Source: an uncultured Vampirovibrionales bacterium (GTDB taxonomy: Bacteria; Cyanobacteriota; Vampirovibrionia; Vampirovibrionales; JAJTHC01). From it: a DNA stretch of 55,892 nt. This document shows, one piece after another, positions 4,140 to 55,892 of the stretch (positions are counted from its first letter, which is position 1; each line of letters opens with the position of its first letter). The translations under genes were made by a program, and so were the position numbers. The notes under the pieces were generated by a model. It ran no database searches and was not told the DNA's origin. It saw nothing but the letters and a program-made list of their open reading frames with translations. Location: contig CAZDMD010000001.1 in the NCBI GenBank assembly GCA_964506805.1, positions 1 through 55,892 of the forward strand, given 5' to 3'.

Positions 4140-4203
4140 TGCCTTCTCGTTTTGTTGATGCTAAACTAGCTTTCATGCGTCAAATAAAGAAGGACAAGCC
4201 CCC

Positions 4204-6030: not shown

Positions 6031-6056
6031 GCCCTGATTGGGTAAACCGCATTTTT

Positions 6057-7499: not shown

Positions 7500-7595
7500 A
7501 CATTGTAGACAAGTTCCGAACCTACTGTAGAGAAAACGGCGAGTGGTTGTCAATACTTTTAAAGCAAGTCGCCTAAAAAAACAGGAGTCCTTACC

Positions 7596-31918: not shown

Positions 31919-31929
31919 ATTCCTTACTC

Positions 31930-34449: not shown

Positions 34450-34457
34450 AGTGTATA

Positions 34458-37400
34458 CTACTTTTCACCTGTAATCTTTTTTTCATCCATAAGTATGCCA
34501 GGGAATTTGGCGTAGTTGACTTTCACGCCATCATCAAGGTCGAGATCGATTTTTTCGTCGGCTAAGATTCTTAACTTTTCGTGGAATTGACGCATTTCGA
34601 CGATGTGTTTTTCTATTTGGATCTTTTCTTTTACTTTGCTTTCTTTTTCTAGTCTTGCTGCGTGGTCTTCCAGTTTGCCCTGAAGCCTGTCGAGATAATC
34701 GGTTCTCACACGGCTTAGCGTGTCTTTGTTGTATCTGTGCAGATATACAAGACAGTTGAAGGCTTTTTCCTTGCCTGAAGTGAACATCCAATAAATGGGG
34801 CGTTTTTTGTAGATTTTCAGATGATCTTCATAGAAGCCTTTTAAGAAGTAAGCTCTTATGGTTTCTTCGGCGGTTTGTTTGATCGGTTTTAACGCCCCGT
34901 TTTTGTCCCTGCCTTGCAGAACGCTTGCGATATAGTCTAGGTTTTGTGAGCCGTTTTCTTTCCCGAAAGCGACTTGTATAAACTCGGCGAACTTGGCGAC
35001 TATATCATCTTCGAACCAGCAATCACTAAGGACGGGAAGGATTGCATCGTCGTCAACAGGCATGGTTTTGTATTTAGACATATCAAACTCACCGCCTGCA
35101 TATACAAGACCTTTTTGGTCAAGGGAGTATCTGCCCATAATACAGCCGACAGCGTAAGAGATGAGTGATTTAATTTCTCTGGTTTCGTCTGCAAGGTTTA
35201 TGGTTACGTCCTTATCAGCCACATCAGGTGTAAGCTCGTCTTGCAAACCATAAATATCAATAAATATTCTGTTTAATTCTTCTTCATTTTGTTTTAATTG
35301 ATTGAATTGCTTTTCGCAGAATTCTGACCAGTTTACAAAGGCTGTTTCTACCTTGTTATCAGTATCAGAGGAGCGGAATCGAATAAGCGGATGTTCTTCA
35401 AAATCCCACGATGTTTCAAACGAATCCCAATCAGTTTTAGAAATTTGAATATTTTGTTCAACTAATTTGTTTATTACTTCTGCTTTGTTTTCATCCTGAT
35501 TAATTATTATAGGTATGTTGGCAATAACACCGGAGCTAAAATTTAAAGTAGGATTTAACATTTTTAAGAATTCATGAATCATTCTTGTATTTAATAATGC
35601 TGCAATGTAATTATATATTTCATCGTCACAAAAAGCTGAATGAGCACCAACATCAAATATAAAACCTCTTGGGAAACATCTGATTCCAAAATTTGCTGAA
35701 CTTATTAGAGACCAAGTTATTCCTTTTCTAAAATAGAATTCCCTGTTAATAACTCTGCCGTTGGACTTGACCCTTGCACCTGGAGTATTATCAATATAAT
35801 CACAGACAGCCTTACCATTATTCTCAAAGTTTATTAAAAAGTCATTATTTCCATACCATTTTCTGAATTCTCCACCCTTGTTATATGGGAACCATTTCAA
35901 TTTACTTTCTTTGGCTTCTTCCTTATCTTTAAACCCAAATCCAGCTTTATTAATATCGATTTCGCTCCATAATCTCAAAAATCTATTGTTGTCGCTTGTC
36001 GCCATACCTTGCCTTGGCTCTGCTATATTGCCAAGACGTTCAGCTGTTTTAAATATCTCTCTAACCCGATTACTCGCCCAGTAGGCAATCGGCGAACCAG
36101 GGATCGAGTGGAAGTCTTTTGAATAAGTTGTATATCTATAATCAACATTCGTATTTTTTACGGCTTCTTTTGTTTTGATCGGTTGATTTTCAGCACCTTT
36201 AAAATCAGCAAGTCTTATATACTCCCCTATATTAGTTTCATGGTTATTTTTAACAACAAAAGTACAAATTGGTACAGTGGCTTCTTCAAAACCTGAATAT
36301 TCTAGTTGTATCAAGCTTGAAATACTTTTAGTATTTAAAATATGTTTTCTTAAATTTTCATGAGTTTTGATAAACATCCAAGTCATTGGCGTCATCATTC
36401 CACAATAACCATTATACTTTGCCATATTATTACATTGGTAAATAAAAGCAGAATACAAATCAGATTTATACTCTTTATAATTTTTTTCGATAAATTGCTT
36501 CATATCAGAATTGTATTTATTATGGTAGGGTGGATTCGTAACAACGATCTCATATTTTTCTGATAATAATCTTGCTTCTTCAAGTATAGGCTTTAAGTTG
36601 ATCCTTATTTCTTCTTTCAATAAAGGACTTGAAGGAATACTAAACGTTAAATCAGAAAGAGATTGTTTGTCGAAACTATCAAGGCTTTTTATTCTATCCA
36701 AATACTTAACATAATCGATCTTAGGTGGATTGATTAAAGAACCAAAGCTTTTTGCATTGCTAAAGGACTTTATCAATTCTTGAATCTGATCCTTTTCTTC
36801 TTGATTTTGACAGAATAAATCTAATGCTGTTGATGAAAGTGGTTTCGCCTCTATAAATTCAAGAATTTTGAAATTTAAGCCGTTCAAACTTTTTGTATAG
36901 CTTCTGGCTTTCATCAAAAGTGCAAAATTAGCCAGTTGAACAGCTCTTCCACATATATCTAATCCCTTTATGTTGTTATTAGCAATTAATTTGGGAATAT
37001 CTTGTTCAAGGTATCCTTGAGCTTTATAAAGTTGATGAAAAATATCAAACGCATAAACTAAAGTGTGTCCCGAACCACAGCAAGGGTCAATAAATTTGAT
37101 TTGTTCAAGAGGAATAAAATCAATTTTAGTTTGATTGTCAATTCGTGGTTTTAAGAAAAATTCCCAGTTATTGATTAAATCACTATCAGGATTCATATCA
37201 TACCAAAGCTTCCCTAATGAATTTTGAACCATGTATTGAACAATCCACTTTGGAGTAAATAATTGAGTTGCTGCAGGTAAATCTTCTTTTTTCACAGTTC
37301 CTTTATTCATTCCAACGACTTCATCTTTTTTCTCAGAAATATAGTACTGATAAAGCCAGCCTATGATTTCAACTTCTTCCCAGTTCGCACGGGGTATTTC

Positions 37401-38021
37401 TATCATCTGTCTTATTACAGAACCTTGATTTAAAAGCCCTGTTGGGAATAAAAGTTCTGTGTAATCGCTGATTTTTTCAAACAAAAACGGTAGTTTTTCA
37501 TACAAAGCGTTGCATTGAGAGATTATCAGCTTTTTATACAGTTCTTCAAAGTTGCTGTCTTCTACTGCCAGTTTAAAGATTTGGTTTCTGTCCAAATTAG
37601 GCAAGTAATCAGGTGCTTTTGAAGATATACCGTTCAAACTATCCAAAGAAGCAAGAATTTTTAGATCGTGGTCAATGTAGTGATGCACTTCCATAAAATA
37701 CAAGGCAATAAAGCGGTTAAACCAAGTGTAAGCAACTTCGTCAACAACATGTTCAAAAGAAGTTTCGTTGATTTTGTCAATCAGTTTTTTTCTTTGTTCT
37801 TTTACTTCTTTCGGAAACACCTGACCCAATATAACAATGCCGTCAGAAGCTTCTATGACATGCTGTGTTTCGATATTGTCAGCCGTAATGCCCAGTTCGT
37901 GGCATTTATTGGTAATCGATTCAATCAGTTTTTTTCTTGCATTTATCGCAAAATCTTTGATTTTAGATTTATTCAGCGTTTCTTTTTTGTCTTGTGTCTG
38001 TTCTGTTACGACGGCTTCCAT
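34458..38021 (-). CDS. pglX: BREX N6-adenine DNA methyltransferase PglX
   Basis: Motif I FIDPCCGSGHTL, motif IV VVTNPPYH, 1187 aa, located between brxC and pglZ. Confidence 0.92.
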   Translation of the reverse strand: MEAVVTEQTQDKKETLNKSKIKDFAINARKKLIESITNKCHELGITADNIETQHVIEASDGIVILGQVFPKEVKEQRKKLIDKINETSFEHVVDEVAYTWFNRFIALYFMEVHHYIDHDLKILASLDSLNGISSKAPDYLPNLDRNQIFKLAVEDSNFEELYKKLIISQCNALYEKLPFLFEKISDYTELLFPTGLLNQGSVIRQMIEIPRANWEEVEIIGWLYQYYISEKKDEVVGMNKGTVKKEDLPAATQLFTPKWIVQYMVQNSLGKLWYDMNPDSDLINNWEFFLKPRIDNQTKIDFIPLEQIKFIDPCCGSGHTLVYAFDIFHQLYKAQGYLEQDIPKLIANNNIKGLDICGRAVQLANFALLMKARSYTKSLNGLNFKILEFIEAKPLSSTALDLFCQNQEEKDQIQELIKSFSNAKSFGSLINPPKIDYVKYLDRIKSLDSFDKQSLSDLTFSIPSSPLLKEEIRINLKPILEEARLLSEKYEIVVTNPPYHNKYNSDMKQFIEKNYKEYKSDLYSAFIYQCNNMAKYNGYCGMMTPMTWMFIKTHENLRKHILNTKSISSLIQLEYSGFEEATVPICTFVVKNNHETNIGEYIRLADFKGAENQPIKTKEAVKNTNVDYRYTTYSKDFHSIPGSPIAYWASNRVREIFKTAERLGNIAEPRQGMATSDNNRFLRLWSEIDINKAGFGFKDKEEAKESKLKWFPYNKGGEFRKWYGNNDFLINFENNGKAVCDYIDNTPGARVKSNGRVINREFYFRKGITWSLISSANFGIRCFPRGFIFDVGAHSAFCDDEIYNYIAALLNTRMIHEFLKMLNPTLNFSSGVIANIPIIINQDENKAEVINKLVEQNIQISKTDWDSFETSWDFEEHPLIRFRSSDTDNKVETAFVNWSEFCEKQFNQLKQNEEELNRIFIDIYGLQDELTPDVADKDVTINLADETREIKSLISYAVGCIMGRYSLDQKGLVYAGGEFDMSKYKTMPVDDDAILPVLSDCWFEDDIVAKFAEFIQVAFGKENGSQNLDYIASVLQGRDKNGALKPIKQTAEETIRAYFLKGFYEDHLKIYKKRPIYWMFTSGKEKAFNCLVYLHRYNKDTLSRVRTDYLDRLQGKLEDHAARLEKESKVKEKIQIEKHIVEMRQFHEKLRILADEKIDLDLDDGVKVNYAKFPGILMDEKKITGEK

Positions 38022-38068
38022 TGTTTATTCCTTCGCTTTTCTCTTTAGGTTACCACGTTTTCTTTGAG

Positions 38069-41000
38069 TTATGACAACCTTATTCGCTTGTTGCTTCTGA
38101 TTTGTTCTTTGAGGTAGGTTTCAACCTCTTTCAGGTATGTATCAACGTCGTCTTCTGTTTCAAGTATTTGTTTAGTTTTGACCACTTTTGCAGGATCCAC
38201 AAATACAAGCTCCTTTGTCTCGACTTTTGGAGGCTCTGGCATAACTTGTACCTGTTCACCAACGGGGTCTGTTGTCGAAGATTCCGTTTGTGCAATAAGT
38301 TTCATTTCTTCAAGTTTTTGTTCGATAAGTGCAATGCTTCTTTGAGAAACGGATTGTACTCTTTCATTTAGAGCAATCACATCGTTAAAGTCGGTCGCCT
38401 TTTCAAGCTCCGATTTTAGGCTTGTGAAAGGGTGTTTGAATTGTTCAGAATCAAGCGTATTGTTTTCAACTTCTGATTTTACAAATTCCCACTCTGCGTT
38501 TATTTCTTCCTGCACATTGGCTTTGGTATTTTGCAAGAGTTGAGAATACTGCTCATCAAACGTCTTGCAGATAAACGGCAGCTCTTTTACATCAGAGTAA
38601 GGTTTTGGATTGTTTAGAATCTGCTTTAATTTTTCTATATTTTCTTTAATATCTGCTTGATGCAGGTAATGGCTGTTTTTTTGATAAGTTTTAAGGGTTT
38701 TTATACCTGTATCAAAAATAGCTTTCTGACTATTAAAGAAGCTCTCAACCCGTTTATATTCTTCTTTCCAATTTGCCAGTGCATCAGCATTTTTGCTTAG
38801 CTCCTCAAGGAAAGAAAAAGCGTCTTTTTTGTATTCAAGTTCTTTAAGGATTTTTTGCCCCAATTCAAGAACATCTTTGCCAGGATAAGGATTGTTCTGA
38901 TATGAATAAAGATATTTAGTCAGCTCCTGAATTTCGGTTCTGATTAAATCCTCTCTTATTATCCTTGCAAGGTCTTCGCCATCTTCCGGCAAGTCGTGCT
39001 TGTCAAAGATTTCTCTTCCGATTTTCTTTGCCGTATCTATCAATGCTGTATCAATTCTTGGCTTTAGTTTGATTATAAGTTTGTCGTATTCTTTGTATTT
39101 TGTAAGATACCCGACAACTTTTGAATCTTCAGGTGTTAGATCTTCTGCGTTATAGGTGAGTTTGATTTCGTTCTTAGCGAACAATGCCGCAATAACTGCC
39201 GCAATATCATACTGAGCCCAACCGTAGGGCTTTTTAGAATATTTGTCTTTTAACTCTTGCAGAGTCACTGTTCTTGCAAAATCAGAATATTGTTTAACTA
39301 TTCCAAGAACATCCTCTTCTGCGGCTTTATTTCCACCGTCCGTTCTAAGCTGTGGGCTTGTAAGAATTCCATGAATTTCTCTCTCTGATTGAACATTGGC
39401 TTTGATTAAAGGTAATTTATAGAAAGTGTTTTTAACAAGGATTTCAAGTGCCTTATTAATTCGTTTTACGGCATCCACAGATTCTTCAACGCTTAATTTT
39501 TCACCCGAAGCAAACATTTCAGAATTTAAAATAGCAGCCGAAAGCGACTCTTGTACTCTTTTCTTTCTCTGAGAACGCTCATTTTCTTTTGCATTAATAA
39601 TATTTCTAACACTTTCAGACTTTGCAATGTCACTGTTTTGCTTAATATATTTGTCTGTTTTGATTATCTGTTCTACCTCTTCAAGATATGAACGGTCTGA
39701 AGGAAGCTTGATAAGTAAAAGTCCGCCAACATTTGTGTGTGATTTGTGAACATTTTCATCAAGGTTAAACTCATTGCTATCAGGAGTTAAAAACCTGATT
39801 TCTATGTCTTCACCTTGTTTTCCGACAAAATACTCATCAACTTTTTTAGTGAAATTATACAGATTGAACTTGCCGTATTTATAAGCTCTGTCTGCATAAA
39901 TCTCTTCAAAAAGAGTAGTGTAAACAAATTTGACAATCTCTCTATAATCAATAGATTGGTTTTTGATGCCACGATTAACATCCTGCTCTTCATCCGTTAA
40001 AAAGTCATACTCTAAACCATTTTGCTGAATAAGAACAACTTGTTTCAGCCTTGATAAAGAAGCGTTAATCTTGTTTCTTAACTCGATTTTATTCTCATGA
40101 ATGTTTGAAATCATTAGTGTTGCTATGTTTTCAATATCTGAAGAAAAGACCTTTATGTATTTAATCATAAATAGAATTTTTAAAACTTCAATATCAAATT
40201 CTTCTAATTCTGAAAGTTGTCTAGCTTTTGCGAAAATTCTTGTTATTGAGCTATCAAGGAATGTTTCAACTGTTCTATAAAAGGCATTAAACGGCACAAG
40301 TTCATTTAAGTTTTTATCAGCATAGTCCATTGCTGCCGTGTGAAAAGCATTAAGCATTGAACGTTCACCTTCAGAAAGGTGCTTGCCTGCATGGCTAAAT
40401 TTTCTTATACACTCAAATACGCTTTGTAATAAATCAAACTGATAAGGTACAAAAGGATAAGTTGCTACGAAATCATCATTTGAAGCATAAGATTTCATGC
40501 CAACAGCCTTGGAGAAGGTTATAAGATTCTTTAATATTGCATCTTGTTCTCGATAAATCTCGCCAAGAGTCTTTTTTGCAAAGTCTTCTTTTGCGAGAAG
40601 TCTTCTTTTTATTACTTCATCAGTGTTTGAGCTTGATAAATTTAGTCGTGTAGTAAATCTTCCTTGAATTTTAGAGAAGTCTTGGTCTTTAAATCTTTCT
40701 TTTGTTAAGGAGTCAATAGCTTCTTGTGATGTCACAATTACCCAAGCTTTACCCTGACAAATTGTTCCAAGATTTTCTGTTACAGTTTGCAAGTTCAACA
40801 TCAAATCTGTATTCTGACCAACATACTGCCCTACTTCGTCAACAAGGAAGACTATTCTTTGATTTTTACCCTTTTTATCAAGATATTTTTTAACTAATTT
40901 TGCAAAACCTTCTGTTGATAAAGAGTAGCTGTTTTCTGAATTTTCAAACATTTGTGATGCAGAATCTTCACTCATTCCAGTAGTTTTAACAATGGCTTCA

Positions 41001-41635
41001 ACAAAATAATCTTTGACAAAGTAGGTTAAATCTCTTTTTTCAATCCATTCTTCGCCAGTAATGTTTTTATACTCTTGTTTAAATCTATCATAGTTGCCTT
41101 CTTCATCAAGAGTTCGTTCAATCTGAGCAAGCCAAGGTATCTCTGCACAATAACCAAGTTTTTCGTTAAATACTTTCATAAAGACTTCAACAATAGCAGT
41201 TTTTCTTGTCTTGCTATCAGATGCACTCTTGGAATCTATATTAAACAAAATAGCATCAGTAGAGTATTTAGAAGCTCTTTCTATTTCACTAAATACATAC
41301 TTGTCTTCTACTTTATCTGTAAAGAAATCAACTGCTTTTTTTCCTTTAACTTCCCTATTCTCAAGCAAATAAGAAATCATCTTTAAGAAGTGAGATTTAC
41401 CTGAACCAAAAAAGCCTGAAATCCAAACACCTATTTGATCCGTATTTGACTCTAAGGATTTATTGTAGGAATTATAAAAATCAACAAAATGCTTTCTTAA
41501 TTCGTGTGTAATTACAAATTCATCAAGCTCTTGATAAACCTCTTCTTCTTTGGCTTGGTCAACTTTAATTACACCATTGATATTTCTTTTTATATCTTTT
41601 GAAAACAGTTCCTGTATCTTCATATCTTCCTGCAC
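38069..41635 (-). CDS. brxC: BREX P-loop ATPase BrxC/PglY
   Basis: Walker A WISGFFGSGKSHFLKMISYLLEN, Walker B VFLVDEVGQY, 1188 aa, synteny. Confidence 0.9.
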   Translation of the reverse strand: MQEDMKIQELFSKDIKRNINGVIKVDQAKEEEVYQELDEFVITHELRKHFVDFYNSYNKSLESNTDQIGVWISGFFGSGKSHFLKMISYLLENREVKGKKAVDFFTDKVEDKYVFSEIERASKYSTDAILFNIDSKSASDSKTRKTAIVEVFMKVFNEKLGYCAEIPWLAQIERTLDEEGNYDRFKQEYKNITGEEWIEKRDLTYFVKDYFVEAIVKTTGMSEDSASQMFENSENSYSLSTEGFAKLVKKYLDKKGKNQRIVFLVDEVGQYVGQNTDLMLNLQTVTENLGTICQGKAWVIVTSQEAIDSLTKERFKDQDFSKIQGRFTTRLNLSSSNTDEVIKRRLLAKEDFAKKTLGEIYREQDAILKNLITFSKAVGMKSYASNDDFVATYPFVPYQFDLLQSVFECIRKFSHAGKHLSEGERSMLNAFHTAAMDYADKNLNELVPFNAFYRTVETFLDSSITRIFAKARQLSELEEFDIEVLKILFMIKYIKVFSSDIENIATLMISNIHENKIELRNKINASLSRLKQVVLIQQNGLEYDFLTDEEQDVNRGIKNQSIDYREIVKFVYTTLFEEIYADRAYKYGKFNLYNFTKKVDEYFVGKQGEDIEIRFLTPDSNEFNLDENVHKSHTNVGGLLLIKLPSDRSYLEEVEQIIKTDKYIKQNSDIAKSESVRNIINAKENERSQRKKRVQESLSAAILNSEMFASGEKLSVEESVDAVKRINKALEILVKNTFYKLPLIKANVQSEREIHGILTSPQLRTDGGNKAAEEDVLGIVKQYSDFARTVTLQELKDKYSKKPYGWAQYDIAAVIAALFAKNEIKLTYNAEDLTPEDSKVVGYLTKYKEYDKLIIKLKPRIDTALIDTAKKIGREIFDKHDLPEDGEDLARIIREDLIRTEIQELTKYLYSYQNNPYPGKDVLELGQKILKELEYKKDAFSFLEELSKNADALANWKEEYKRVESFFNSQKAIFDTGIKTLKTYQKNSHYLHQADIKENIEKLKQILNNPKPYSDVKELPFICKTFDEQYSQLLQNTKANVQEEINAEWEFVKSEVENNTLDSEQFKHPFTSLKSELEKATDFNDVIALNERVQSVSQRSIALIEQKLEEMKLIAQTESSTTDPVGEQVQVMPEPPKVETKELVFVDPAKVVKTKQILETEDDVDTYLKEVETYLKEQIRSNKRIRLS

Positions 41636-41644
41636 CTTCTTTAT

Positions 41645-42271
41645 TTAGACATCATCTTCTACGAGTTTAAAGGCTCTGTAGTAGTTATCATCGGTTATTC
41701 CTGCAAAGACTTTGCTTTTGAACAATCTTAAGTCTTTTTGATCATAAGCACCAGGATAAAACATTATCACTGGAACTTTATCCAAGACGTGATGTAAGTT
41801 ATTCAAAATTGTGTGTGACCTAACAAGTGGCCATACTTTGCCTACCCCTGTTATTAAAACAAGATTTGCGTTTTTAACTTTTTCCTCAATTAAAGCTATG
41901 AATCTTTGAGGCTTCAATAGAGCAGTAAGCCCTTTTTCTAGCCTTAAAGTCCCATCTTTTTCTTCCATTAATGGTATTTCATCAAGGATAGTTTTATCTT
42001 TAATTTTTTGAGAATCAAGAATCTTAATCATAAGTTCAAATAGATCTAATTCTACAGGTTTTATTATTGAACTATCAAATTTATAACTTTGAATAAATTG
42101 TTCAACAAAACTTCTAGCTTTAATCTCGTCCTTTGGGTCATAATCAAAAATATAAAACCCAAGCTCACCGCCTTGTGTTTTATTATTCAGAAAACCATCG
42201 GTTTCAATTATTTCTTTTATTCTGTCAAATCGTTTTCCTATACTACTCAATCTAACCTCCCAACATCGCAT
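41645..42271 (-). CDS. brxB: BREX protein BrxB (DUF1788-like)
   Basis: About 200 aa with GFYIFDYDPKDE, positioned between brxA and brxC. It overlaps brxA by 20 nt, so the start is uncertain. Confidence 0.8.
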   Translation of the reverse strand: MRCWEVRLSSIGKRFDRIKEIIETDGFLNNKTQGGELGFYIFDYDPKDEIKARSFVEQFIQSYKFDSSIIKPVELDLFELMIKILDSQKIKDKTILDEIPLMEEKDGTLRLEKGLTALLKPQRFIALIEEKVKNANLVLITGVGKVWPLVRSHTILNNLHHVLDKVPVIMFYPGAYDQKDLRLFKSKVFAGITDDNYYRAFKLVEDDV

Positions 42272-42845
42272 TTAAATATTCACGATCTCCGATGGTCTTT
42301 AAATGATCAGATAGTTTCGAATCTATTATAGGAGGTTCAATCTCAAGCTTTACTGTGTCCTTAATATAACCAGCCTCAATTAAAATTTTAGTGTAAACTT
42401 GCTTTAATTTTGTTATAGTCGCATCTGTGAAGTTAGATACTATTTCAGATTGTTCAGCTTTAATATCTAAAAAGTTTTGAATAACGGCTTTGTTTAGTTG
42501 TGGCTGTAAAGACTTGTATCTCTCACAAACCACTTGTTGCATAAATTCAAAGAACATAAAATCAGTCTTCATAATTGAATATAACGCAACTAATCTGCCA
42601 GTTTCGTTTGATGAGTTAACTAGCATTTGAATCAACTCTTCATCTAAAATTTCAAGTCTTTCTATAACAGCTCCCAACCTTTTAGGCACACTTTTGATTG
42701 TTTTGTACTGAAATAAATTATTTTCGATTACTATTTTTTTTATGTCCTGATCTTTGATTCCAGCTGACTTTAATTTAGCAACTTCTTTGAGTTCTAAATA
42801 TAAAAAAGGATTTCCTGTTATTTTCGCACTATATTTTTTTTGCAT
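42252..42845 (-). CDS. brxA: BREX protein BrxA (DUF1819-like)
   Basis: 197-aa first gene of the operon. The call rests mainly on size and canonical BREX-1 order. Confidence 0.75.
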   Translation of the reverse strand: MQKKYSAKITGNPFLYLELKEVAKLKSAGIKDQDIKKIVIENNLFQYKTIKSVPKRLGAVIERLEILDEELIQMLVNSSNETGRLVALYSIMKTDFMFFEFMQQVVCERYKSLQPQLNKAVIQNFLDIKAEQSEIVSNFTDATITKLKQVYTKILIEAGYIKDTVKLEIEPPIIDSKLSDHLKTIGDREYLNAMLGG

Positions 42846-43177: not shown

Positions 43178-43275
43178 ACAGAGTTTTTTGTACGTTGTTG
43201 CTACGATTAGTTTGTTCAGTCCTGTAGCTTTATCTGAACCCACTCACAAAAGAATCTAGACTATTCGTCTAGGCT
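43178..43275 (-). repeat. Dispersed intergenic repeat (MITE-like), copy 1, inverted orientation
   Basis: tacgttgttgctacgattagtttgttcagtc...cacaaaagaatctag...cgtctaggct is the near reverse complement of 44185-44270. Confidence 0.7.
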
Positions 43276-43389
43276 ACTATTCCAAAAGATCTGGTGAATT
43301 CAAGAAACCTCTACTTTACAGGGGAAGACCACATAGCTATAATAATAAAAGTAACCCCATTAAACCCCAACCGTTTAGGAGCTTTTAAA

Positions 43390-44097
43390 ATGAGCCTTCT
43401 CGCCTTTGTTCAGAAAATTGAATCGGCTTTAAACTCGAAAGAAGTGAAAGCCTTTGAAAAGCAAGTGAACGCTTTCGTCCACAAACTCAATCAGATCGAC
43501 TGGCAAAAAGCCGAAGAGCATTTTAAAATAAACGCAGATATTTCTGAAAGTATCCTCGCTGAACTCGATCGTAAACAGATCGACAGCTCGGTATTAGACG
43601 GCATCAGCTTTCCTGAGGTGCTTGAACTCTACGTGCTGTCTACTCAGCAAAACTTGCCCTTTGGGGAATTACTTGAAGATAGTCTCGATCTCTTTAAAAA
43701 GGTGAACTATGACGCTTCTAAAACCTATCTCCGCGTATTAAAAAAACGAAGCACTCGCACGATAGAGGACCTCAAAGAGGTTAAACTCCCCGCAGACGTG
43801 CTGGTGAAGCTAAAAACCCACGATGCTTATATAAAGGAGCTATTTCAGGTCGCTGTTCAGAACTATACGGAAGGCAAGATCTCCCTTCCAGAAACGGAAC
43901 GCAAGATTCTCAAGGCATTGAAAAAGAATAGATGGCTAACGAATAAGGCACTGGCTGAACAACTTAATTATAGTGAACGCACTATTGAAGCCAACTGTTC
44001 CAAAATAAGAGAACGCTTTGGCTTAGATGACCTAAAAGATAAAAATAGCAAACGACGCATCGTGATCGATTTGGCACAATTCTTGACGCTCGACTAA
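43390..44097 (+). CDS. 235-aa protein with a C-terminal LuxR/GerE-type HTH; conserved anchor gene of the island family
   Basis: C-terminus ETERKILKALKKNRWLTNKALAEQLNYSERTIEANCSKIRERFGL. ATG 43390 lies 8 nt after aggag. The track ORF starts upstream at 43294, but the 4057-4139 remnant conserves only from the RBS onward. Confidence 0.7.
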   Translation: MSLLAFVQKIESALNSKEVKAFEKQVNAFVHKLNQIDWQKAEEHFKINADISESILAELDRKQIDSSVLDGISFPEVLELYVLSTQQNLPFGELLEDSLDLFKKVNYDASKTYLRVLKKRSTRTIEDLKEVKLPADVLVKLKTHDAYIKELFQVAVQNYTEGKISLPETERKILKALKKNRWLTNKALAEQLNYSERTIEANCSKIRERFGLDDLKDKNSKRRIVIDLAQFLTLD

Positions 44098-44146: not shown

Positions 44147-44301
44147 AATTATAGTCGTTTTCAGAGTTTTTTGTAGAGATGGCTAGACGAGGAGCCTAGA
44201 TTATTTTGTGAATGGAGTGTAGACAGAACTACATGACTGAACAAAATACATCGTAGCGACAACGTATAGACGCTCTACAAAAAATTATGGGAACGACTAT
44301 A
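44147..44301 (+). repeat. Dispersed intergenic repeat (MITE-like), copy 2, with terminal inverted repeats
   Basis: Left end aattatagtcgttttcagagttttttgtagag, right end ctctacaaaaaattatgggaacgactata. The core ctagacgaggagcctagattattttgtga...catgactgaacaaaa..atcgtagcgacaa is shared with 51450-51535. Confidence 0.75.
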
Positions 44302-44329: not shown

Positions 44330-45640
44330 ATGACCTTACACCTTGAGTATTTAAACACAACGACGATTCAGCCTTACAAGCAGAACCCACGGATTCACAA
44401 GAGTAAACAAATTGCTCAAATTGCCCATTCGATTCAAACCTTTGCGTTTAACAACCCTATTCTCATTGACGAAAAGAATGAAATCATCGCAGGTCACGGC
44501 AGATGGCTGGCCGCTCAACAGCTTCACTTGAGTGAGGTACCCGTGATCAAATTATTGCATTTGAGTGAAGCCCAGAAAAAAGCCTATCGCATCGCCGACA
44601 ACAAACTCACGGAAAACGGTCAATGGGACGTTGACTTATTGAAGATCGAGTTCTTGGAGCTAGAAGCGTTGGATCTAAACTTTGGCTTGGAGATTACAGG
44701 CTTTGACATCGCCGACATTGACTTGATTCTGGATGCACAGCTCGCAGACAAAAACACCCCGTTAGATGAACAAGCCAATGCCGTTCCTTTTGTACCCGAG
44801 CATGAAATTGTCACAACCCTAGGTGACACATGGCTTTTAGGTAAGCATAAAATCATCTGCGGCGATGCCTTAGTACCCGAAACCTATCAAGCCTTATGCC
44901 AAGACAAAAAAGCGAGTATGGTATTTACCGACCCACCCTACAACGTCAAGGTGGAGGGACATATTGGCGGCTTGGGGAAAATCAAGCATAAGGAGTTTCA
45001 AATGGCATCAGGGGAAATGTCTTCCGCTGAATTTCAGGCTTTTTTGCAGAAAAACTTCACCCTCCTAAAGGCTTTTTCAAAGAATGGATCGCTCCACTAT
45101 ATTTGCATGGATTGGCGACATATTAAGGAGATCATTGAAGCAGGCACCGCCGTGTATGACGATTTTAAAAACCTCTGCGTGTGGAATAAGGACAACGGCG
45201 GCATGGGGTCGCTCTATCGTTCCAAGCATGAACTCGTCTTTGTCTTCAAACACGGCAACCGCTCGCATCACAACAATGTAGAACTCGGTTCACACGGACG
45301 CTACCGAACCAATGTGTGGGATTACCCTGGTGTCAACTCCTTTGGCGGAGATAAAGACAAGCTCAAAATGCACCCCACCGTCAAACCTGTTGAAATGGTC
45401 AAAGATGCCATTTTAGATGTGTCCGCTCGGAGTGAAATCATACTCGATGCGTTTTTAGGCTCAGGGACAACATTAATCGCCGCAGAACAATGCGGACGGA
45501 TTTGTTACGGTATCGAGTTAGAACCGCTCTATGTCGATACCACGATTCGTCGTTGGCAGGACATTAGCGGGCAATCTGCGATTCACCAAGCGACAGGCCA
45601 AACATACCGAGAACTGCTGGAGGACAAAATCAATGCTTAA
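44330..45640 (+). CDS. ParB-like N-terminal domain fused to a beta-class N4/N6 DNA methyltransferase
   Basis: ParB/Srx-like IQPYKQNPRIHKSKQIAQIAHSIQTFAFNNPILIDEKNEIIAGHGRWLAA. Methylase motif IV VFTDPPYN and motif I ILDAFLGSGTTLIAAE. Confidence 0.88.
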   Translation: MTLHLEYLNTTTIQPYKQNPRIHKSKQIAQIAHSIQTFAFNNPILIDEKNEIIAGHGRWLAAQQLHLSEVPVIKLLHLSEAQKKAYRIADNKLTENGQWDVDLLKIEFLELEALDLNFGLEITGFDIADIDLILDAQLADKNTPLDEQANAVPFVPEHEIVTTLGDTWLLGKHKIICGDALVPETYQALCQDKKASMVFTDPPYNVKVEGHIGGLGKIKHKEFQMASGEMSSAEFQAFLQKNFTLLKAFSKNGSLHYICMDWRHIKEIIEAGTAVYDDFKNLCVWNKDNGGMGSLYRSKHELVFVFKHGNRSHHNNVELGSHGRYRTNVWDYPGVNSFGGDKDKLKMHPTVKPVEMVKDAILDVSARSEIILDAFLGSGTTLIAAEQCGRICYGIELEPLYVDTTIRRWQDISGQSAIHQATGQTYRELLEDKINA

Positions 45641-46025
45641 CGACTACGACATCGGCTACGGAAAACCTCCAGAAGAAAAACGCTTTAAACAGGGGAAATC
45701 AGGTAATCCGCAGGGGCGTCCCAAAGGGAGCAAAAATACCTACACCTTACTCAATGACATTCTTAACCAAAAAATCGTCGTCTCAGAAGGCGATGAAAAA
45801 ATCAAAATATCTAAGAAAATGGCGATGCTCACACAACTGGTCAATAAAGGCGTCAAAGGCGATATAAAAGCCATTACCGCCTTACTGCCTCACCTCTTAA
45901 TCGCCGATTTAAAAGAAGAAGAACGTCATCAGATACGAGAACTTTTAAATCAGGATGATCAATCGATTATTGCCGACTATCTTTCTCGGTATCATGGAAC
46001 TGCTGAGGACGAAGCCCATGAGTAA
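45633..46025 (+). CDS. DUF5681-like small protein, probable small terminase subunit
   Basis: MLNDYDIGYGKPPEEKRFKQGKSGNPQGRPKGSKN is the DUF5681 N-terminal signature. ATG 45633 overlaps the methylase stop, and the gene lies directly upstream of TerL. Confidence 0.65.
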   Translation: MLNDYDIGYGKPPEEKRFKQGKSGNPQGRPKGSKNTYTLLNDILNQKIVVSEGDEKIKISKKMAMLTQLVNKGVKGDIKAITALLPHLLIADLKEEERHQIRELLNQDDQSIIADYLSRYHGTAEDEAHE

Positions 46026-47454
46026 AAGCATTTTAAACGCCATCTTACGAAGCGACTTCACGGCCTTTGTCCAAAAAGTCTTTCTTGAAGTCTCCCCCAA
46101 TGCTCAGTATCTCGGTAACTGGCATATCGATTTAATTTGCCATGAACTCGAAGCCATGTTGGCAGGTCAAAACCCTCGACTCATTGTCAATATACCCCCA
46201 CGCTACATGAAGTCTATTATTTGCTCTATTGCCTTTCCTGCCTATATTTTAGGGAAGAATCCGAAAGCCACGATTATCGCCGTCAGTTATAACGAAGACT
46301 TGTCGCAGAAGTTGGCGTTAGATTGTAAACGGGTCATGGAAAGTCAGTGGTATCGGGATATTTTTCCGCATACCCGATTATCCAAAAATAAAAAAGCCAT
46401 TGCGGATTTTGAAACCAGCCGTGGAGGCGGTCGTTTTTCAACTTCTGTCAATGGCACCTTAACAGGTCGAGGAGCCGATTACCTGATTATAGATGACCCG
46501 ATTAAACCCGACGATGCCCTATCCGATCTCCTTAGAAAAAAGACAAATGATTGGTACGGCAGTACCCTCTATTCAAGGCTTAACAACAAAAACGACGGCA
46601 AAATCATGGTGATTATGCAACGCTTGCACGACGAAGATTTCACAGGCTACTTGCTTCAAAGCGACAAAACCTTTAAGCACTTAAAAATACCCGCCATAGC
46701 CGAAAGCAATGAAATATGGTCATTCAAGCATAAAACAGTAACGCGTCAAAAAGGTGAAGCCCTCCACCCTGAACGAGAGTCCCTCTCCAAGCTCATAGAA
46801 GCCAAAAAGCAAATGGGAGAATACCATTTTTCAGGTCAGTACCAACAAAACCCAGCTCCACGAGACGGCGGGATTATTAAGAAAAAATGGTTTAAATACT
46901 ATGATCCGAACGCCCTGTTTAAAGCCATCGCTGAGAAAGAAATCAGAATCAAATCTATTTTCCAGTCGTGGGATACCGCCAGTAAAATAGAGCAATACAA
47001 CGATTATTCCGTGTGTCTGACGGTATTGAGAGATAGAAAAGGCGTGCATTATATTTTAGACGCTTACCGAGAAAAACTAGAGTTCCCTCAACTCGTCAAT
47101 CAAGTCATTCAACGCTATAAATCCGCAGAAACGACCTATGGTCGACAAATAGACGTCTTGATTGAAGATAAGAACTCAGGCATCCAACTCATTCAAACCT
47201 TGAAAACCCAACATTATATCACGGCAAAAGCCGTGAAGCCTGAACATGATAAACGCACCCGACTCATGGCCGTGTCGCATTTGATTGAAAACGGAAGCTG
47301 TTTATTTCCTAACAACGACCCCCACTGGCTTCTTGAGTTTGAATCTGAACTACTCCGCTTTCCCAATGGTAAATATGACGACCAGTGCGATGCCTTAAGC
47401 CAAGTCTTGGTGCAACCCAATACCTACACCTTCGTAGATGCGTTTGGCGATTAA
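46018..47454 (+). CDS. terL: Phage terminase large subunit (TerL) homologue
   Basis: P-loop region RLIVNIPPRYMKS, Walker B ADYLIIDDPIK, nuclease-domain acidic motifs FQSWDTASK and KYDDQCDALSQ. ATG 46018 (MSKSIL) overlaps the preceding gene. Confidence 0.8.
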   Translation: MSKSILNAILRSDFTAFVQKVFLEVSPNAQYLGNWHIDLICHELEAMLAGQNPRLIVNIPPRYMKSIICSIAFPAYILGKNPKATIIAVSYNEDLSQKLALDCKRVMESQWYRDIFPHTRLSKNKKAIADFETSRGGGRFSTSVNGTLTGRGADYLIIDDPIKPDDALSDLLRKKTNDWYGSTLYSRLNNKNDGKIMVIMQRLHDEDFTGYLLQSDKTFKHLKIPAIAESNEIWSFKHKTVTRQKGEALHPERESLSKLIEAKKQMGEYHFSGQYQQNPAPRDGGIIKKKWFKYYDPNALFKAIAEKEIRIKSIFQSWDTASKIEQYNDYSVCLTVLRDRKGVHYILDAYREKLEFPQLVNQVIQRYKSAETTYGRQIDVLIEDKNSGIQLIQTLKTQHYITAKAVKPEHDKRTRLMAVSHLIENGSCLFPNNDPHWLLEFESELLRFPNGKYDDQCDALSQVLVQPNTYTFVDAFGD

Positions 47455-47535
47455 ACTCACTCATATAAAGAGGATTTCTCTGGTTTTTGTACAAAAAACC
47501 TTGATACTTCACCCCTTCCAAGTGATGAATAGAGC

Positions 47536-47997
47536 ATGAGAAAAACACCGCTCGATTTACCCAACACCCTAGAAGCCCTCAATGCCTTGGAAGCTGAAGA
47601 CGTCAAGCACTTATGGCAACGCTATTTTAAAATCCCCCCCAAGCACCTCAAAAGTGCAATGCTCAAACCCCTTTGGTATGAAATTCAGTGTGAACGTCAA
47701 AAGTTGAAACTCCCTCAAAAAGTCATCACCAAATTGAACCGCTATTCAAAAGACGTGAATCATAAGGTCACACGGGCGTGTAAAGTCAAGTACACGCTGT
47801 CCACAGGCACCGACATCATTAAGATGTTTAAAAACAAAGAATACAAAGTGAGCGTCCTAGGCGAAAACCAGTTTTTGTATAATCAGCTGACCTACAACAG
47901 CCTTTCTGCGGTGGCAAAAGTCATTTGCGGTCATAAAGTTTCAGGCAATGATTTCTTTGGCTTAAACAACAAAAAGGTGCGTTATGAAAATCAATAA
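47536..47997 (+). CDS. DUF2924-like protein (usual partner of large serine recombinases)
   Basis: LWQRYFKIPPKHLKSAMLKPLWYEIQCE and YKV...FLYNQLTYNSLSAVAKVICGHKVSGNDFFGL. It overlaps the recombinase start by 14 nt. Confidence 0.7.
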   Translation: MRKTPLDLPNTLEALNALEAEDVKHLWQRYFKIPPKHLKSAMLKPLWYEIQCERQKLKLPQKVITKLNRYSKDVNHKVTRACKVKYTLSTGTDIIKMFKNKEYKVSVLGENQFLYNQLTYNSLSAVAKVICGHKVSGNDFFGLNNKKVRYENQ

Positions 47998-49504
47998 CTG
48001 TGCGATTTATATTCGAAAGTCCAGTGAAAAAGGCTTGGAACAAGATTTTAACTCCCTCCATAATCAGGAAGAGGCCTGTAAAGCCTATATTTTATCCCAA
48101 GCCTATAACGGCTGGCAACATTACAAAACCTATGAAGATGGCGGACTCTCAGGCGGGAGTATGAAGCGTCCTGCCTTACAAGCGCTCTTAAAGGATATGG
48201 AAAATGGGGTCATTCAAACCGTCGTGGTTTATAAGGTCGACCGATTGTCTCGTTCCATTATCGATTTTTACCACATGATGCAAACCTTTGACAAGCATAA
48301 TTGTAGTTTCGTGTCGATTACGCAATCCTTTGACACCTCTAACTCAATGGGCAAGCTGACCTTGAATATGCTGCTGTCCTTTGCACAATTTGAACGAGAG
48401 GTGTCGTCTGAACGCATTCGAGATAAGATGCAAGCCAGCAAAGCCAAAGGCTTGTGGATGGGAGGGCCTTGCCCCTTGGGCTATACTCTTGAAGACAAAA
48501 AACTGCAGATTCATCCCAAAGAAGCAGAGCTGGTTCGGCAGATATTTACGCAATACCTCAAACTTGAATCCGTCCATACGCTCAGGCAATGGCTCAAAGA
48601 CGAGGGCTACCAAGGGAAACGAGGCGTGGCGTTTAGTCTTAGTGGACTACACCGCCTTTTAAGCAATCCGCTTTATACGGGTAAAGTCGTTCATAAACGA
48701 CTCGGTAAAATCTATGACGGTCAACACGAACCAATCCTTTCAGATGAATTATTTGAAGCCGTGCAACTCAAGTTGTCACAACGCTTTAAAGAAAAGGAAT
48801 CTCGAAAGGCCTATACCTTTCAAGAAAACCTACTAAACGGTATTTTTTACACCGAAGCAGGCGAAGGCTTTAAGTATTCCAATGCTAAAAAACAACAAAA
48901 ACACTTTAATTATTACTACGTCAAAGGAACCTACTTGGCCGCCGAACAAATCGAGACACAGGTGATTCAAGCACTGGCTTTCTTGGATTTATCTGAAGAT
49001 GCCTTACGGTCTTCGCTGAGTCAAGTGATTTATCGCAAAGCAGACCCTCTCGCTGAACTAGAAATACATCTGACCCTCAATGATTCGCTCGGTCACTTGA
49101 AATTGCCTCCTCATGCCGTGTTGAGCATGGATCAGAAAATCCTTATTTTAAGCACCCATCTGCTGATTAACAATCAGGCCCAAACCACTTTACGAGGAAC
49201 CCCAAACAAAAGCATCCTCTCCATCCACGAGATGAATGAGCAGGTAATTCAAGGAATTTCCTTGGCCTGGCATTACAGAAGTCTGTGGAAGCAAGGCGTC
49301 AGCGTTGAAGACATTGCCAAACAGGAATCCACAGGCAAGCGAAAAATACAGAAATATCTGGCTTTAACCCTCCTCTCTCCACCGATTATTGAAGCCCTAC
49401 TGAACTACCAAAACCCTCAACATTTTACCCTCACCCAACTCATTACACTCGCCGAACAAACCCCTGATTTTGACCAACAAGCACTCGCCTACTTTGGCAT
49501 GTAA
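47984..49504 (+). CDS. Large serine recombinase (resolvase/invertase N-terminal domain plus recombinase domain)
   Basis: CAIYIRKSSEKG (catalytic Ser context), YEDGGLSGGSMKRPALQALL, VVVYKVDRLSRS, FAQFEREVSSERIRDK, PCPLGY. Confidence 0.9.
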   Translation: MKINNCAIYIRKSSEKGLEQDFNSLHNQEEACKAYILSQAYNGWQHYKTYEDGGLSGGSMKRPALQALLKDMENGVIQTVVVYKVDRLSRSIIDFYHMMQTFDKHNCSFVSITQSFDTSNSMGKLTLNMLLSFAQFEREVSSERIRDKMQASKAKGLWMGGPCPLGYTLEDKKLQIHPKEAELVRQIFTQYLKLESVHTLRQWLKDEGYQGKRGVAFSLSGLHRLLSNPLYTGKVVHKRLGKIYDGQHEPILSDELFEAVQLKLSQRFKEKESRKAYTFQENLLNGIFYTEAGEGFKYSNAKKQQKHFNYYYVKGTYLAAEQIETQVIQALAFLDLSEDALRSSLSQVIYRKADPLAELEIHLTLNDSLGHLKLPPHAVLSMDQKILILSTHLLINNQAQTTLRGTPNKSILSIHEMNEQVIQGISLAWHYRSLWKQGVSVEDIAKQESTGKRKIQKYLALTLLSPPIIEALLNYQNPQHFTLTQLITLAEQTPDFDQQALAYFGM

Positions 49505-49544
49505 ATACAGGGGTTATCTTTATTCTAAACACCTTAAATAGCGT

Positions 49545-49693
49545 GTATAGTTTTCGATAGATGAAATAGGCTATGAGACTACTCTAGGAGCCTAGATTTT
49601 TTTTGTGCGGGCGTGTACATAGACGTACATAACCAAACAAAAAAATCGTAGCGACAACGAAGAGGCCATAGACCATTTTATCTAATAGTCGTG
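49545..49693 (+). repeat. Dispersed intergenic repeat (MITE-like), copy 3, more diverged
   Basis: ctaggagcctagattttttttgtg....aaatcgtagcgacaacg, with ends tatagttttcg / taatagtcgtg. Confidence 0.6.
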
Positions 49694-49803
49694 CCTTTTG
49701 AAATTAGGGCAATGTATAGAAACGCCGAAAAAAGCGGATACCTGAGCCATTAAAAAGGTATACCTGAATCTAAGGTGAGTACCCATCCGTCTTAGACTCG
49801 CAC

Positions 49804-49872
49804 ACACGGCGTTTTTTGAGTGTGAATCCTGTAAATCCTTACTATGACTGGTTCTTAAAGGAAAGTGGTGGA
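49804..49872 (+). repeat. att-like direct repeat, proximal copy, overlapping the last 7 nt of tRNA-Ala
   Basis: See 7431-7499. The last 7 nt (49866-49872) are the tRNA 3' end including CCA. Confidence 0.7.
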
Positions 49873-49941
49873 GGTTAGCGGATTCGAACCGCTGGCCTTC
49901 TCAATGCCATTGAGACGCGCTACCAACTGCGCCAAACCCCC
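49866..49941 (-). tRNA. tRNA-Ala(GGC): tRNA-Ala, anticodon GGC, CCA encoded
   Basis: The reverse complement is GGGGGTTTGGCGCAGTTGGTAGCGCGTCTCAATGGCATTGAGAAGGCCAGCGGTTCGAATCCGCTAACCTCCACCA (76 nt). It shows the G3:U70 Ala identity pair, anticodon stem TCTCA/TGAGA with loop ATGGCAT, and T-loop GGTTCGAATCC. Confidence 0.93.
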
Positions 49942-51393: not shown

Positions 51394-51594
51394 TATATAG
51401 ACGCTCTATACTCGATTAAAGATGTTTCCGAACAGTAGGCTAGACGATAATCCTAGACGAGGAGCCTAGATTATTTTGTGAAGGAGTGTAGATAGACCTA
51501 CATGACTGAACAAAATCATCGTAGCGACAAAGTATAGACGCTCTACAAGAAATTATGAATACGACTATACAAGAAATTATGGGGACGACTATAC
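51394..51594 (+). repeat. Dispersed intergenic repeat (MITE-like), copy 4, with a duplicated right end
   Basis: ctagacgaggagcctagattattttgtgaaggagtgtagatagacctacatgactgaacaaaatcatcgtagcgacaaagtatagacgctctacaagaaattatgaatacgactat, followed by a second acaagaaattatggggacgactat. Confidence 0.75.
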
Positions 51595-51698: not shown

Positions 51699-51956
51699 TT
51701 AGCCGTGATGCTCGCCAGCATGTCCTTCTTCAGCATGTCCTTCTTCAGCAGGAGCAGCTTCTTCTTTCATTGCACCTTCTTCAGCAGGAGCGGTTTCTTC
51801 TTTCATTGCACCTTCTTCAGCACCCATTTCTTCAACGGCAACAGGTTCTGTGGTAGTCGTTGTGCTTTCAGCACTTTCCATGCAACCTGTTAAAGCGAAA
51901 GAACTGGCTAAAGCAAGAGAAACAAGAGACAATCCGAATAATTTAAACATCGTCAA
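51699..51956 (-). CDS. Small acidic lipoprotein with tandem EEGAMKEE(T/A)APA repeats and a His-rich C-terminus
   Basis: Signal peptide plus lipobox MTMFKLFGLSLVSLALASSFALTGC. Repeat AEEGAMKEETAPAEEGAMKEEAAPAEEGHAEEGHAGEHHG. Confidence 0.75.
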   Translation of the reverse strand: MTMFKLFGLSLVSLALASSFALTGCMESAESTTTTTEPVAVEEMGAEEGAMKEETAPAEEGAMKEEAAPAEEGHAEEGHAGEHHG

Positions 51957-55835: not shown

Positions 55836-55892
55836 AATTATAGTCAATTAAATATATTCCCGTACAGTGCCTATACTTTGTCGCTACGATGA
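55836..55892 (-). repeat. Dispersed intergenic repeat (MITE-like), copy 5, inverted and cut by the window edge
   Basis: aattatagtc... and cctatactttgtcgctacgatga, which is the reverse complement of tcatcgtagcgacaaagtatagg (compare 51517-51537). Confidence 0.6.

Follow-up and report, generated by a model that had tools for sequence, protein, structure and literature searches.

Terminase-bearing, capsid-less defence islands at tRNA genes: a widespread, probably phage-derived family with helper-dependent packaging as a candidate route of transfer

Phage-inducible chromosomal islands (PICIs), among them the Staphylococcus aureus pathogenicity islands (SaPIs), redirect the capsids of a helper phage through a packaging-specificity gene of their own and often bring defence cargo with them. 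The marine virion-encapsidated integrative mobilizable elements (VEIMEs) are integrated islands without a full virion gene set (PMC9618062), and capsid-forming PICIs (cf-PICIs) are reported to encode their own large and small terminase subunits (bioRxiv 10.1101/2022.09.08.507074). The PICI-like elements (PLEs) of Vibrio cholerae are described as integrating through a large serine recombinase, depending on helper virions, and restricting the helper (PMC9638900, PMC7145576). Tycheposons, from Prochlorococcus, target tRNA genes and join a conserved mobility core to genes of satellite type or to exchangeable cargo; at tRNA hotspots they are found as tandem arrays and remnants (bioRxiv 10.1101/2020.12.28.424599). 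The Wolbachia phage WO carries a pair of DUF2924 and serine recombinase genes together with a methylase/ParB gene (PMC10299305, PMC9203015). Here, we analyse a 55,892-nt stretch of DNA from an uncultured Vampirovibrionales bacterium (contig CAZDMD010000001.1, referred to as the window), which holds a defence island with a five-gene core at 44330-49504 that encodes a large terminase subunit (TerL) and a large serine recombinase.

Our best overall explanation, to which we give a probability of roughly one half, is that this island belongs to a family of phage-derived mobile defence islands with helper-dependent packaging. The best-supported part of this reading, of which we are confident from comparison of the sequences, is that the islands are an active family of capsid-less integrative mobile elements, phage in origin, whose terminase is functional and whose defence cargo turns over fast. 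We read the family as ancient and widespread. Whether the islands travel in the capsids of helper phages, which is the satellite lifestyle, is close to a coin toss, leaning slightly against if anything.

The open reading frame (ORF) listing and Pfam searches place five co-directional genes, packed like an operon, in the core:

44330-45640, plus strand: ParB-methylase fusion, ParB_N + N6_N4_Mtase (Pfam ParB_N 5.6e-08, N6_N4_Mtase 8.9e-30)
45633-46025, plus strand: DUF5681 protein of 130 aa (Pfam DUF5681, E 1.9e-21)
46018-47454, plus strand: TerL of 478 aa (Pfam Terminase_6C 2e-12, above its cut-off; Terminase_6N only at threshold)
47536-47997, plus strand: DUF2924 protein (Pfam DUF2924 1e-22)
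47984-49504, plus strand: large serine recombinase of 506 aa (Pfam Resolvase 6e-39, Recombinase 7e-20)

The TerL start is M22 of the longest ORF, which begins at 45955, and was chosen from the starts of homologues. With homologue-supported starts, the genes overlap by 8, 8, and 14 nt, and the single gap, of 81 nt, lies between TerL and DUF2924. The DUF5681 gene overlaps the ParB-methylase gene at its start and the TerL gene at its stop, and the DUF2924 and recombinase genes are translationally coupled. Matches to PHROG were strong for the ParB-methylase (phrog_498, 4e-128), TerL (phrog_38, 2.5e-110, along with NCBIfam TIGR01630 above its cut-off), and the recombinase (phrog_95 'integrase', 1.6e-99, along with sub-threshold NCBIfam matches to CcrB and XisF). 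The recombinase translation has a YIRKSS motif near its N-terminus that includes the expected catalytic serine, and by its domains the protein is a large serine recombinase of the phage-type integrase class. A tRNA-Ala(GGC) gene lies 361 nt past its stop codon on the opposite strand. The earlier note on this DNA, made from the letters alone, had described five tightly packed genes beside a tRNA-Ala, which the Pfam and ORF evidence confirms, and had read them as the mobility and packaging core of a defence island. That structural reading is strongly upheld by synteny, selection, and variable cargo.

A protein search with TerL returned thousands of relatives, the best of which was 95% identical and came from a Vampirovibrio metagenome-assembled genome (MAG). 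The gene neighbourhoods of six matches (55-95% identity) were evaluated through precomputed Pfam annotations, and the same module was observed in 6/6 with no virion genes. Its order in these contexts was a small upstream gene, ParB-methylase, DUF5681, TerL, DUF2924, and serine recombinase, with housekeeping genes beginning directly after the recombinase. Neighbouring genes included type I restriction-modification, a SNF2 helicase with a methylase and Bro, Abi_C, RhuM, AAA_15/21, Vsr, GmrSD, ApeA, AbiJ-kinase, and a group II intron. A scan of one genome per species gave 282 relatives, of which 79 loci were kept, and a scan of IMG/VR gave 98, of which 80 were kept (loci L094-L173). Apart from those of IMG/VR, the loci come from Vampirovibrionia/Melainabacteria, Gracilibacteria, Vulcanimicrobiota, Elusimicrobia/Endomicrobia, gut Alphaproteobacteria, and others. 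When the window proteins were searched with tblastn, the five genes were found to co-occur at TerL identities from 97% down to ~34%.

Synteny was counted over 161 non-redundant loci, many of them on truncated contigs. Sufficient flank was available in 112 loci; the ParB-methylase gene precedes TerL in 107 of these and DUF5681 does so in 106. A serine recombinase was present in 129/161 loci and DUF2924 in 116/161. Three arrangements were observed, and across all of them DUF2924 is directly upstream of the recombinase in nearly all loci. The pair either follows TerL directly, as in the window, or lies 1-8 kb downstream of it with variable genes between, or sits upstream in divergent orientation with the cargo after TerL. 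A search for the syntenic core had been put forward as a check on the structural reading, and its outcome is positive, with the module recurring in ~160 loci, variable cargo, and varying tRNA sites. Some MAGs hold two to four modules on separate contigs (L018/L019/L021/L022 in one Vulcanimicrobiota MAG; L028/L042; L053/L058).

The integration sites and the cargo of the relatives were found to vary even between close copies. Of 59 informative loci, 18 have a tRNA gene no more than 900 nt away from the recombinase gene, and the number rises to 31 when the distance is widened to 3 kb; the orientation is convergent in every case. These targets are mostly tRNA-Ser, with Ala, Val, Ile, Tyr, His, Pro, Gln, and Arg also represented. 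Cores that are 90-97% identical occupy different tRNA targets, namely Ala(GGC), Ala(TGC), and Ile(GAT), and cores that are 92-97% identical bear entirely different cargo, none of the window's cargo being common to relatives at that level. Two loci are worth describing individually. In L028, from an Elusimicrobia MAG, positions 108-5300 hold the recombinase, ParB-methylase, DUF5681, and TerL genes, followed directly by a convergent tRNA-Val. In L014, from a Gracilibacteria MAG, the ParB-methylase appears split in the table-11 translation (700-1623), probably from UGA being read as a sense codon, which would place the module in a recoded candidate phylum.

To measure selection, dN/dS, the ratio of nonsynonymous to synonymous substitution rates, was computed against five close relatives. 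Values were 0.055-0.11 for TerL, 0.07-0.10 for the ParB-methylase, 0.08-0.16 for DUF5681, 0.12-0.24 for DUF2924, and 0.14-0.23 for the recombinase, and all five core genes are under purifying selection. A clade-specific helix-turn-helix (HTH) gene upstream of the core evolves faster, at 0.25-0.46. Residue conservation in TerL was read from an alignment of 29 sequences that are 50-95% identical to the window protein. No variation was seen at K86/S87 (Walker A), D180/D181 (Walker B), Q222/R223, or the nuclease acidics D340 and E404, and at least 90% of the sequences keep D476 and D479. The protein has the predicted make-up of a large terminase, with an N-terminal Walker A/B ATPase and a C-terminal RNase H-like nuclease carrying its acidic residues. 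It had been considered beforehand that TerL might be inactive and the core not conserved elsewhere. The conserved catalytic residues and the ~160 loci point the other way. Reading frames are intact across relatives except in occasional disrupted copies such as L098. This close relative (77% over the match) has a TerL at 1628-3292 broken by stop codons or an insertion and is a truly decaying copy.

Virion genes were looked for in the window by running Pfam, PHROG, and PADLOC on ORFs of at least 100 aa at ~7500-49870, except for a few whose span is shared with a longer gene on the other strand. None of these ORFs of the 42.4-kb element was identified as a portal, capsid, tail, or lysis gene, and on this point the three resources agree with what had been claimed at first reading. 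In the relatives, clustering of 279 non-core ORFs downstream of TerL at 40% identity gave 235 clusters, where large ones would be expected from a head-tail module common to the family. PHROG and Pfam summaries found no head or tail families among 149 downstream ORFs, which instead encode DNA methylases, ResIII/SNF2 helicases, SMC, Fic, host ABC transporters, and glycosyltransferases, and likewise none among 95 ORFs from the most divergent module-bearing contigs. Both the 42-kb element and the neighbouring ORFs of its relatives are thus without a complete virion gene set, as is usual for satellites. Site-specific integration and excision, the other function expected of a satellite, would be provided by the element's own large serine recombinase at its tRNA-side end.

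We also took the nearest cultured phages and used four of their protein types (portal, MuF-like, protease, and capsid) to probe the loci by tblastn. Matches were observed only in L123, L125, and L150, whose TerLs are 40-44% identical and which have none of the other four core genes. Homologues of the core were thus not found inside full prophages; their always being there had been named as an outcome that would reduce the island to a prophage remnant. Phage-gene homologues accompany only these three module-less TerL relatives. Nearly all of the 80 kept 'viral' contigs of IMG/VR carry the module and no virion gene, and were probably called viral on TerL alone. We considered whether the 5.4-kb 'Bacteriophage sp.' MT839917 and small IMG/VR contigs are circular core-only elements and rejected the idea, as they have no terminal repeats and are probably fragments.

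Among cultured phages, SL25 has the closest TerL, with a ParB_N homologue upstream of it and portal and protease annotations of the gene transfer agent (GTA) type. In phages whose TerL is 34-37% identical, the portal gene comes directly after TerL (SL25, PhiPLPE) or after one gene (Klebsiella phage Geezett). From the phage collection, the best match to TerL (46%) comes from an unverified scaffold of 5.4 kb on which only the module is present. In a neighbour-joining tree with midpoint rooting and few outgroups, all module-bearing TerLs fall in one large clade, with phage TerLs basal or outside. This topology fits a single ancient capture of TerL followed by co-inheritance with the module. The best explanation of these patterns is that the family derives from a temperate phage, and that it has kept the functions acting on DNA and lost all particle genes.

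The window element spans ~7500-49872, or 42.4 kb, and is inserted at the 3' end of the tRNA-Ala gene. Its ends are marked by the following features:

49866-49941, minus strand: tRNA-Ala(GGC), the predicted integration target (ARAGORN), with its 3' end facing the end of the recombinase gene
49505-49865, plus strand: non-coding right end (attP arm, or P arm), interrupted at ~49575-49684 by a copy of a repeat resembling a miniature inverted-repeat transposable element (MITE)
7493-7525, plus strand: left junction (attL-like), where similarity to the right end stops after TGGTGGA and the next arm is ACATTGTAGACAAGTTCCGAACC
7431-7499, plus strand: right-end arm of an older decayed tandem element, ending in TGGTGGA, the last 7 nt of the tRNA

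In L001, L002, L009, and L041, the ~300 nt that follow the recombinase gene are conserved, and this conservation runs exactly to the tRNA 3' end (TGGTGGA). The convergent tRNA at this junction is Ala(GGC) in the window, L002, and L009, Ala(TGC) in L001, and Ile(GAT) in L041. The right junction of the window was also recovered in an independent metagenome assembly, on a 3.2-kb contig (L177) at 99.9% identity. This contig, from the same population, came up in exact-match look-ups through its recombinase, while the TerL and RibBA of the window had no exact match in the assembly collection; the nearest relatives are Vampirovibrionales MAGs. Reading by eye and without statistics, we found GGTTC 19-23 nt from the crossover point in both arms, in the left arm as its reverse complement. 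In our own reading, likewise made without a statistical test, this may be a dyad symmetry of the kind seen in serine-integrase attP sites.

A 69-nt repeat (7431-7499 and 49804-49872, 86% identical) had been taken in the earlier note for a pair of att repeats enclosing the element. We rejected it as a classical att duplication. The left copy also matches the right-end DNA of L009 (85%), L001 (80%), and L002 (74%), and since the repeat is internal right-end DNA conserved in relatives, the left copy is the right arm of a second element. Positions 1-7499 contain a type I hsdS/hsdM pair that resembles the cargo of L002 and stands at the same position, as well as a GIY-YIG gene. Of the HTH gene, 83 nt are left there (4057-4139), with an in-frame stop and 93% identity to 43375-43457. 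A methylase (4204-6030) and a specificity subunit (6057-7430) are found where the core would be expected. The window therefore holds a decayed element of the family followed by the intact 42.4-kb element, in tandem at one tRNA gene. The decayed copy has lost its core and looks unlike the intact element. In its GIY-YIG gene region, we also observed a perfect 31-nt tandem duplication (1713-1743 / 1755-1785). A run of 36-nt repeats (51709-51849) lies outside the island, inside a small minus-strand ORF at 51699-51956.

Between the two ends, most of the element is defence cargo. The Pfam and PADLOC annotations over the cargo region (7596-42845) are:

8548-9519: AbiD (Pfam/PADLOC)
9811-13350: type IIG restriction-modification enzyme (Pfam/PADLOC)
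13354-16533: HKD-Snf2 helicase, with the type IIG enzyme (Pfam/PADLOC)
16565-17281: ORF without annotation; two further such ORFs lie at the start of the cargo
17719-19478, plus strand: umuD/umuC translesion-polymerase pair among the defence cargo (Pfam)
19943-25177: PDC-S37/Hhe helicase-nuclease (Pfam/PADLOC)
25277-29776, minus strand: Avs2, full length (PADLOC PDLC02161, E = 0)
29888-42845: complete type 1 BREX system with brxL, pglZ, pglX, brxC, brxB, and brxA (Pfam/PADLOC)

The element has three ORFs without annotation, of 196, 104, and 238 aa. The cargo described earlier as Abi, helicase/methylase, Hhe-like, Avs-like, and BREX systems can now be named as AbiD, type IIG with HKD-Snf2, PDC-S37/Hhe, Avs2, and type 1 BREX.

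Two more features lie just ahead of the core:

43390-44097, plus strand: HTH regulator of 235 aa from the ATG at 43390, in sixth position (longest ORF from 43294)
44153-44299, plus strand: MITE-like repeat insertion between the HTH and ParB-methylase genes, not part of the family core

The HTH gene had been labelled 'LuxR-type', which overstates the match. Only a C-terminal HTH was identified, with weak Pfam matches to HTH_24, HTH_Mga, and GerE, the last below its cut-off. Its homologues are confined to the Vampirovibrio-like clade, and we rejected it as a universal sixth core gene on that ground. The MITE-like repeat is ~110-150 nt long and present in at least 5 copies in the 56 kb, inside and outside the island, the others being at 43191-43293 (reverse), 49575-49684, 51452-51569, and 55839-55892 (reverse). 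L001, L002, and L009 have no copy at the equivalent positions; in L010, L095, and L097 a copy follows the recombinase. Direct repeats at 44183 and 49579, 5.4 kb apart and flanking the core, were considered as att sites of a mini-element. This candidate was rejected because the copies are a dispersed repeat, also found outside the island and missing at those positions in relatives.

Since the family has kept a full packaging motor without a shell, helper-dependent packaging would be the most economical mechanism. We propose that the serine recombinase carries out both integration and excision of the island, acting at a short attP immediately past the end of the recombinase gene, with DUF2924 assisting it as an accessory or directionality factor. 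In the presence of a helper phage, the operon of ParB-methylase, DUF5681, and TerL would be expressed. The methylase would modify the island DNA, DUF5681 would mark its packaging site, and TerL would cut the DNA and pump it into procapsids supplied by the helper. The defence cargo would thereby spread as a satellite, and the transfer would also compete with the helper for capsids. A further step, which we hold only tentatively and with less conviction than helper transfer itself, is that these islands form a new and ancient 'terminase-only' class of satellites. Such a class would be monophyletic and present in many phyla, candidate phyla and gut Alphaproteobacteria among them, and would combine a complete packaging motor, made up of TerL, DUF5681 as a non-canonical specificity subunit, and the ParB-methylase, with a tRNA-targeting serine integrase, moving phage-sized defence loads in helper procapsids, with DUF5681 as a new kind of small terminase and DUF2924 as a new directionality factor.

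The two small proteins of the core were evaluated through structure models. DUF5681 is the presumed DNA-recognition partner of TerL, a role as small terminase subunit (TerS) that is assigned from its gene position. It has a conserved basic, AT-hook-like N-terminal arm (GYGKPP...SGNPxGRPKGSKN), and its AlphaFold2 model has a mean predicted local distance difference test (pLDDT) score of 83. A profile search against PDB sequences gave no match for DUF5681, and Foldseek found nothing significant for the model in PDB. In BFVD, Foldseek returned only DUF5681 proteins plus one TerS match at E 0.49, and hhalign comparison with the TerS of Geezett and PhiPLPE gave probabilities <1%. The 'complete-looking terminase pair' described at first is therefore borne out only by half: TerL is intact and constrained, and the DUF5681 protein occupies the TerS position with no detectable similarity to a known TerS. 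For DUF2924, presumed to be an accessory or directionality factor of the recombinase, the AlphaFold2 model (pLDDT 79) had no significant Foldseek match in PDB and a weak, non-significant likeness to the C-terminal DNA-binding domain of CcrM.

Several results count against helper-dependent packaging. The first is that, judged by sequence and predicted fold, DUF5681 has no detectable likeness to a TerS that is annotated or of solved structure. In addition, a second small ORF matching DUF5681 was observed just before DUF2924 in some relatives (after TerL in L037/L038; at 16297-16677 in L088; at 12600-12806 in L090). A paralogue ahead of DUF2924 suggests that DUF5681 may be a general DNA-binding factor, and proteins of this type may act in recombination, either in addition to packaging or in place of it. 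Neither the core nor the conserved neighbouring positions yielded a replication initiator, primase, or helicase, which leaves a concatemeric packaging substrate without an explained source. The conserved upstream positions hold a metallo-beta-lactamase-fold protein, a DDE transposase, and uncharacterised proteins. TerL co-diverges with the module and does not track helper phages, which would be unexpected if it had to dock on the portals of diverse helpers. A missing replication module and a TerL that appears to pass down with its module, without exchange with phages, are both unusual among satellites. The island also carries Avs2 beside its own intact and selected TerL. Avs2 is a sensor resembling nucleotide-binding leucine-rich repeat (NLR) proteins and is reported to recognise the large terminase of phages (PMC11564622). 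With both in one element, the island has to avoid triggering its own sensor, either through repression or because this TerL goes unrecognised. Terminal repeats are absent from the IMG/VR contigs, and searches of metagenome contigs for the attP junction and the left arm gave no matches. Finally, the flanks available in relatives are at most 10 kb long, and distant virion modules are excluded only for the complete element of the window.

An alternative that accommodates several of these points is a packaging-interference or addiction module, in which the ParB-methylase, DUF5681, and TerL harm phages or stabilise the island, and the island moves by some other means. TerL could cut or mis-package phage DNA or compete for procapsids, or, in the addiction variant, the methylase would protect DNA that TerL cuts. 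The core accompanies defence cargo everywhere, the methylase is strictly coupled to the nuclease-ATPase, no replication module was found, and TerL evolves with the module rather than with phages, all as such a role would have it. We nevertheless consider it unlikely. The strict linkage to a recombinase at the end of the element and the rapid spread across tRNA sites and phyla would require transfer to be efficient, and Pfam scans of the window and PHROG/Pfam summaries of the relatives' neighbours showed no genes for conjugation or mobilisation. TerL is also kept at full length, with the motifs of the ATPase-translocase conserved along with those of the nuclease, which exceeds what a nuclease would need. 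In known satellites, such as PICIs and PLEs, interference and self-packaging are not mutually exclusive.

Less probable again is a split system, in which the capsid, portal, and tail genes lie elsewhere in the genome, as GTA-like dispersed loci, or belong to a resident prophage without a terminase, the island being one component of a domesticated system that makes particles. A TerL that is conserved and vertically stable in its module is what would be expected alongside a stably inherited portal, and the GTA-type portal and protease annotations of SL25 are in line with it. Occurrence in very different phyla, with 2-4 copies per genome and varied insertion sites, is instead the behaviour of a mobile element. 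The idea of a deleted prophage remnant, five functionless genes left after a temperate phage lost its virion genes, is very improbable: the gene order (ParB-methylase, small-subunit position, TerL) does match the start of a phage late operon, SL25 has ParB_N upstream of TerL, and phage WO pairs serine recombinase, DUF2924, and methylase/ParB, but the same 'deletion' would have to be shared by ~160 loci in many phyla with TerL identity down to ~34%, the five genes have dN/dS of 0.055-0.24 with invariant catalytic residues and mostly intact frames, and the truly decayed copy at 1-7499 looks different, so that the core is not a decaying prophage.

If helper-dependent packaging is the right explanation, with the islands using their own terminase and borrowed capsids, it would be a satellite strategy unlike all described families, combining the element's own motor with a stolen shell. 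It would also explain how BREX, Avs, Hhe, and restriction-modification loads move among poorly studied phyla, such as Vampirovibrionia, Elusimicrobia, Gracilibacteria, and gut Alphaproteobacteria. Whether or not the islands are satellites, the five-gene core can be used in practice to find defence islands and their variable cargo in metagenomes. Virus-detection pipelines should treat these islands with caution, as a TerL match alone makes them 'viral'. DUF5681 and DUF2924, both families of unknown function, gain testable roles, and the family is a source of tRNA-targeting large serine integrases with natural partner proteins for genome engineering.

No published description of this gene set was found in full-text searches of a collection without most subscription journals. 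The likeness to PICIs/SaPIs, phage-inducible chromosomal minimalist islands (PICMIs), and VEIMEs lies in site-specific integration, an incomplete virion set, defence cargo, and a packaging gene of their own. PICI-type elements bring TerS only or capsid-remodelling genes; their integrase is nearly always a tyrosine one, accompanied by AlpA/Stl-type regulators, a primase-replicase is usual, and they are 5-15 kb in size, with ~10-15 kb expected of a PICI or SaPI. The window element, in contrast, combines a full TerL with a ParB-methylase and with the pair of DUF2924 and large serine recombinase, lacks any recognisable replication module, and at 42 kb is phage-sized. By its gene content and size it is not a PICI or SaPI. 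The cf-PICIs add capsid, portal, protease, and connector genes and steal tails only, and none of these genes was found in the window or in the family members examined, so it does not look like a cf-PICI either. The earlier note's statement that the gene content differs from that of the PICI and cf-PICI families is in line with these differences.

To our knowledge, PLEs have their own replication initiator, use the packaging machinery of the helper, are limited to one species, where they integrate at Vibrio repeats and not at tRNA genes, and share no core gene with the window family beyond the recombinase class. Tycheposons use tyrosine recombinases in 910/937 cases, many have replication genes, and TerL and the ParB-methylase are absent from all of them; only their PICI-like subset, which has no cargo, includes a capsid gene or TerS. 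The window element resembles them in targeting a tRNA gene and differs in recombinase class, in its core, and in having no replication genes, and would not be counted as a tycheposon. WO phages have full head, baseplate, and tail modules with a portal after the terminase, none of which is found in the window family, and a temperate phage of the WO type is probably the type of ancestor. By analogy, then, the element is most like the PICI- or PLE-type satellites in how it would work, and most like the tycheposons in the logic of its cargo.

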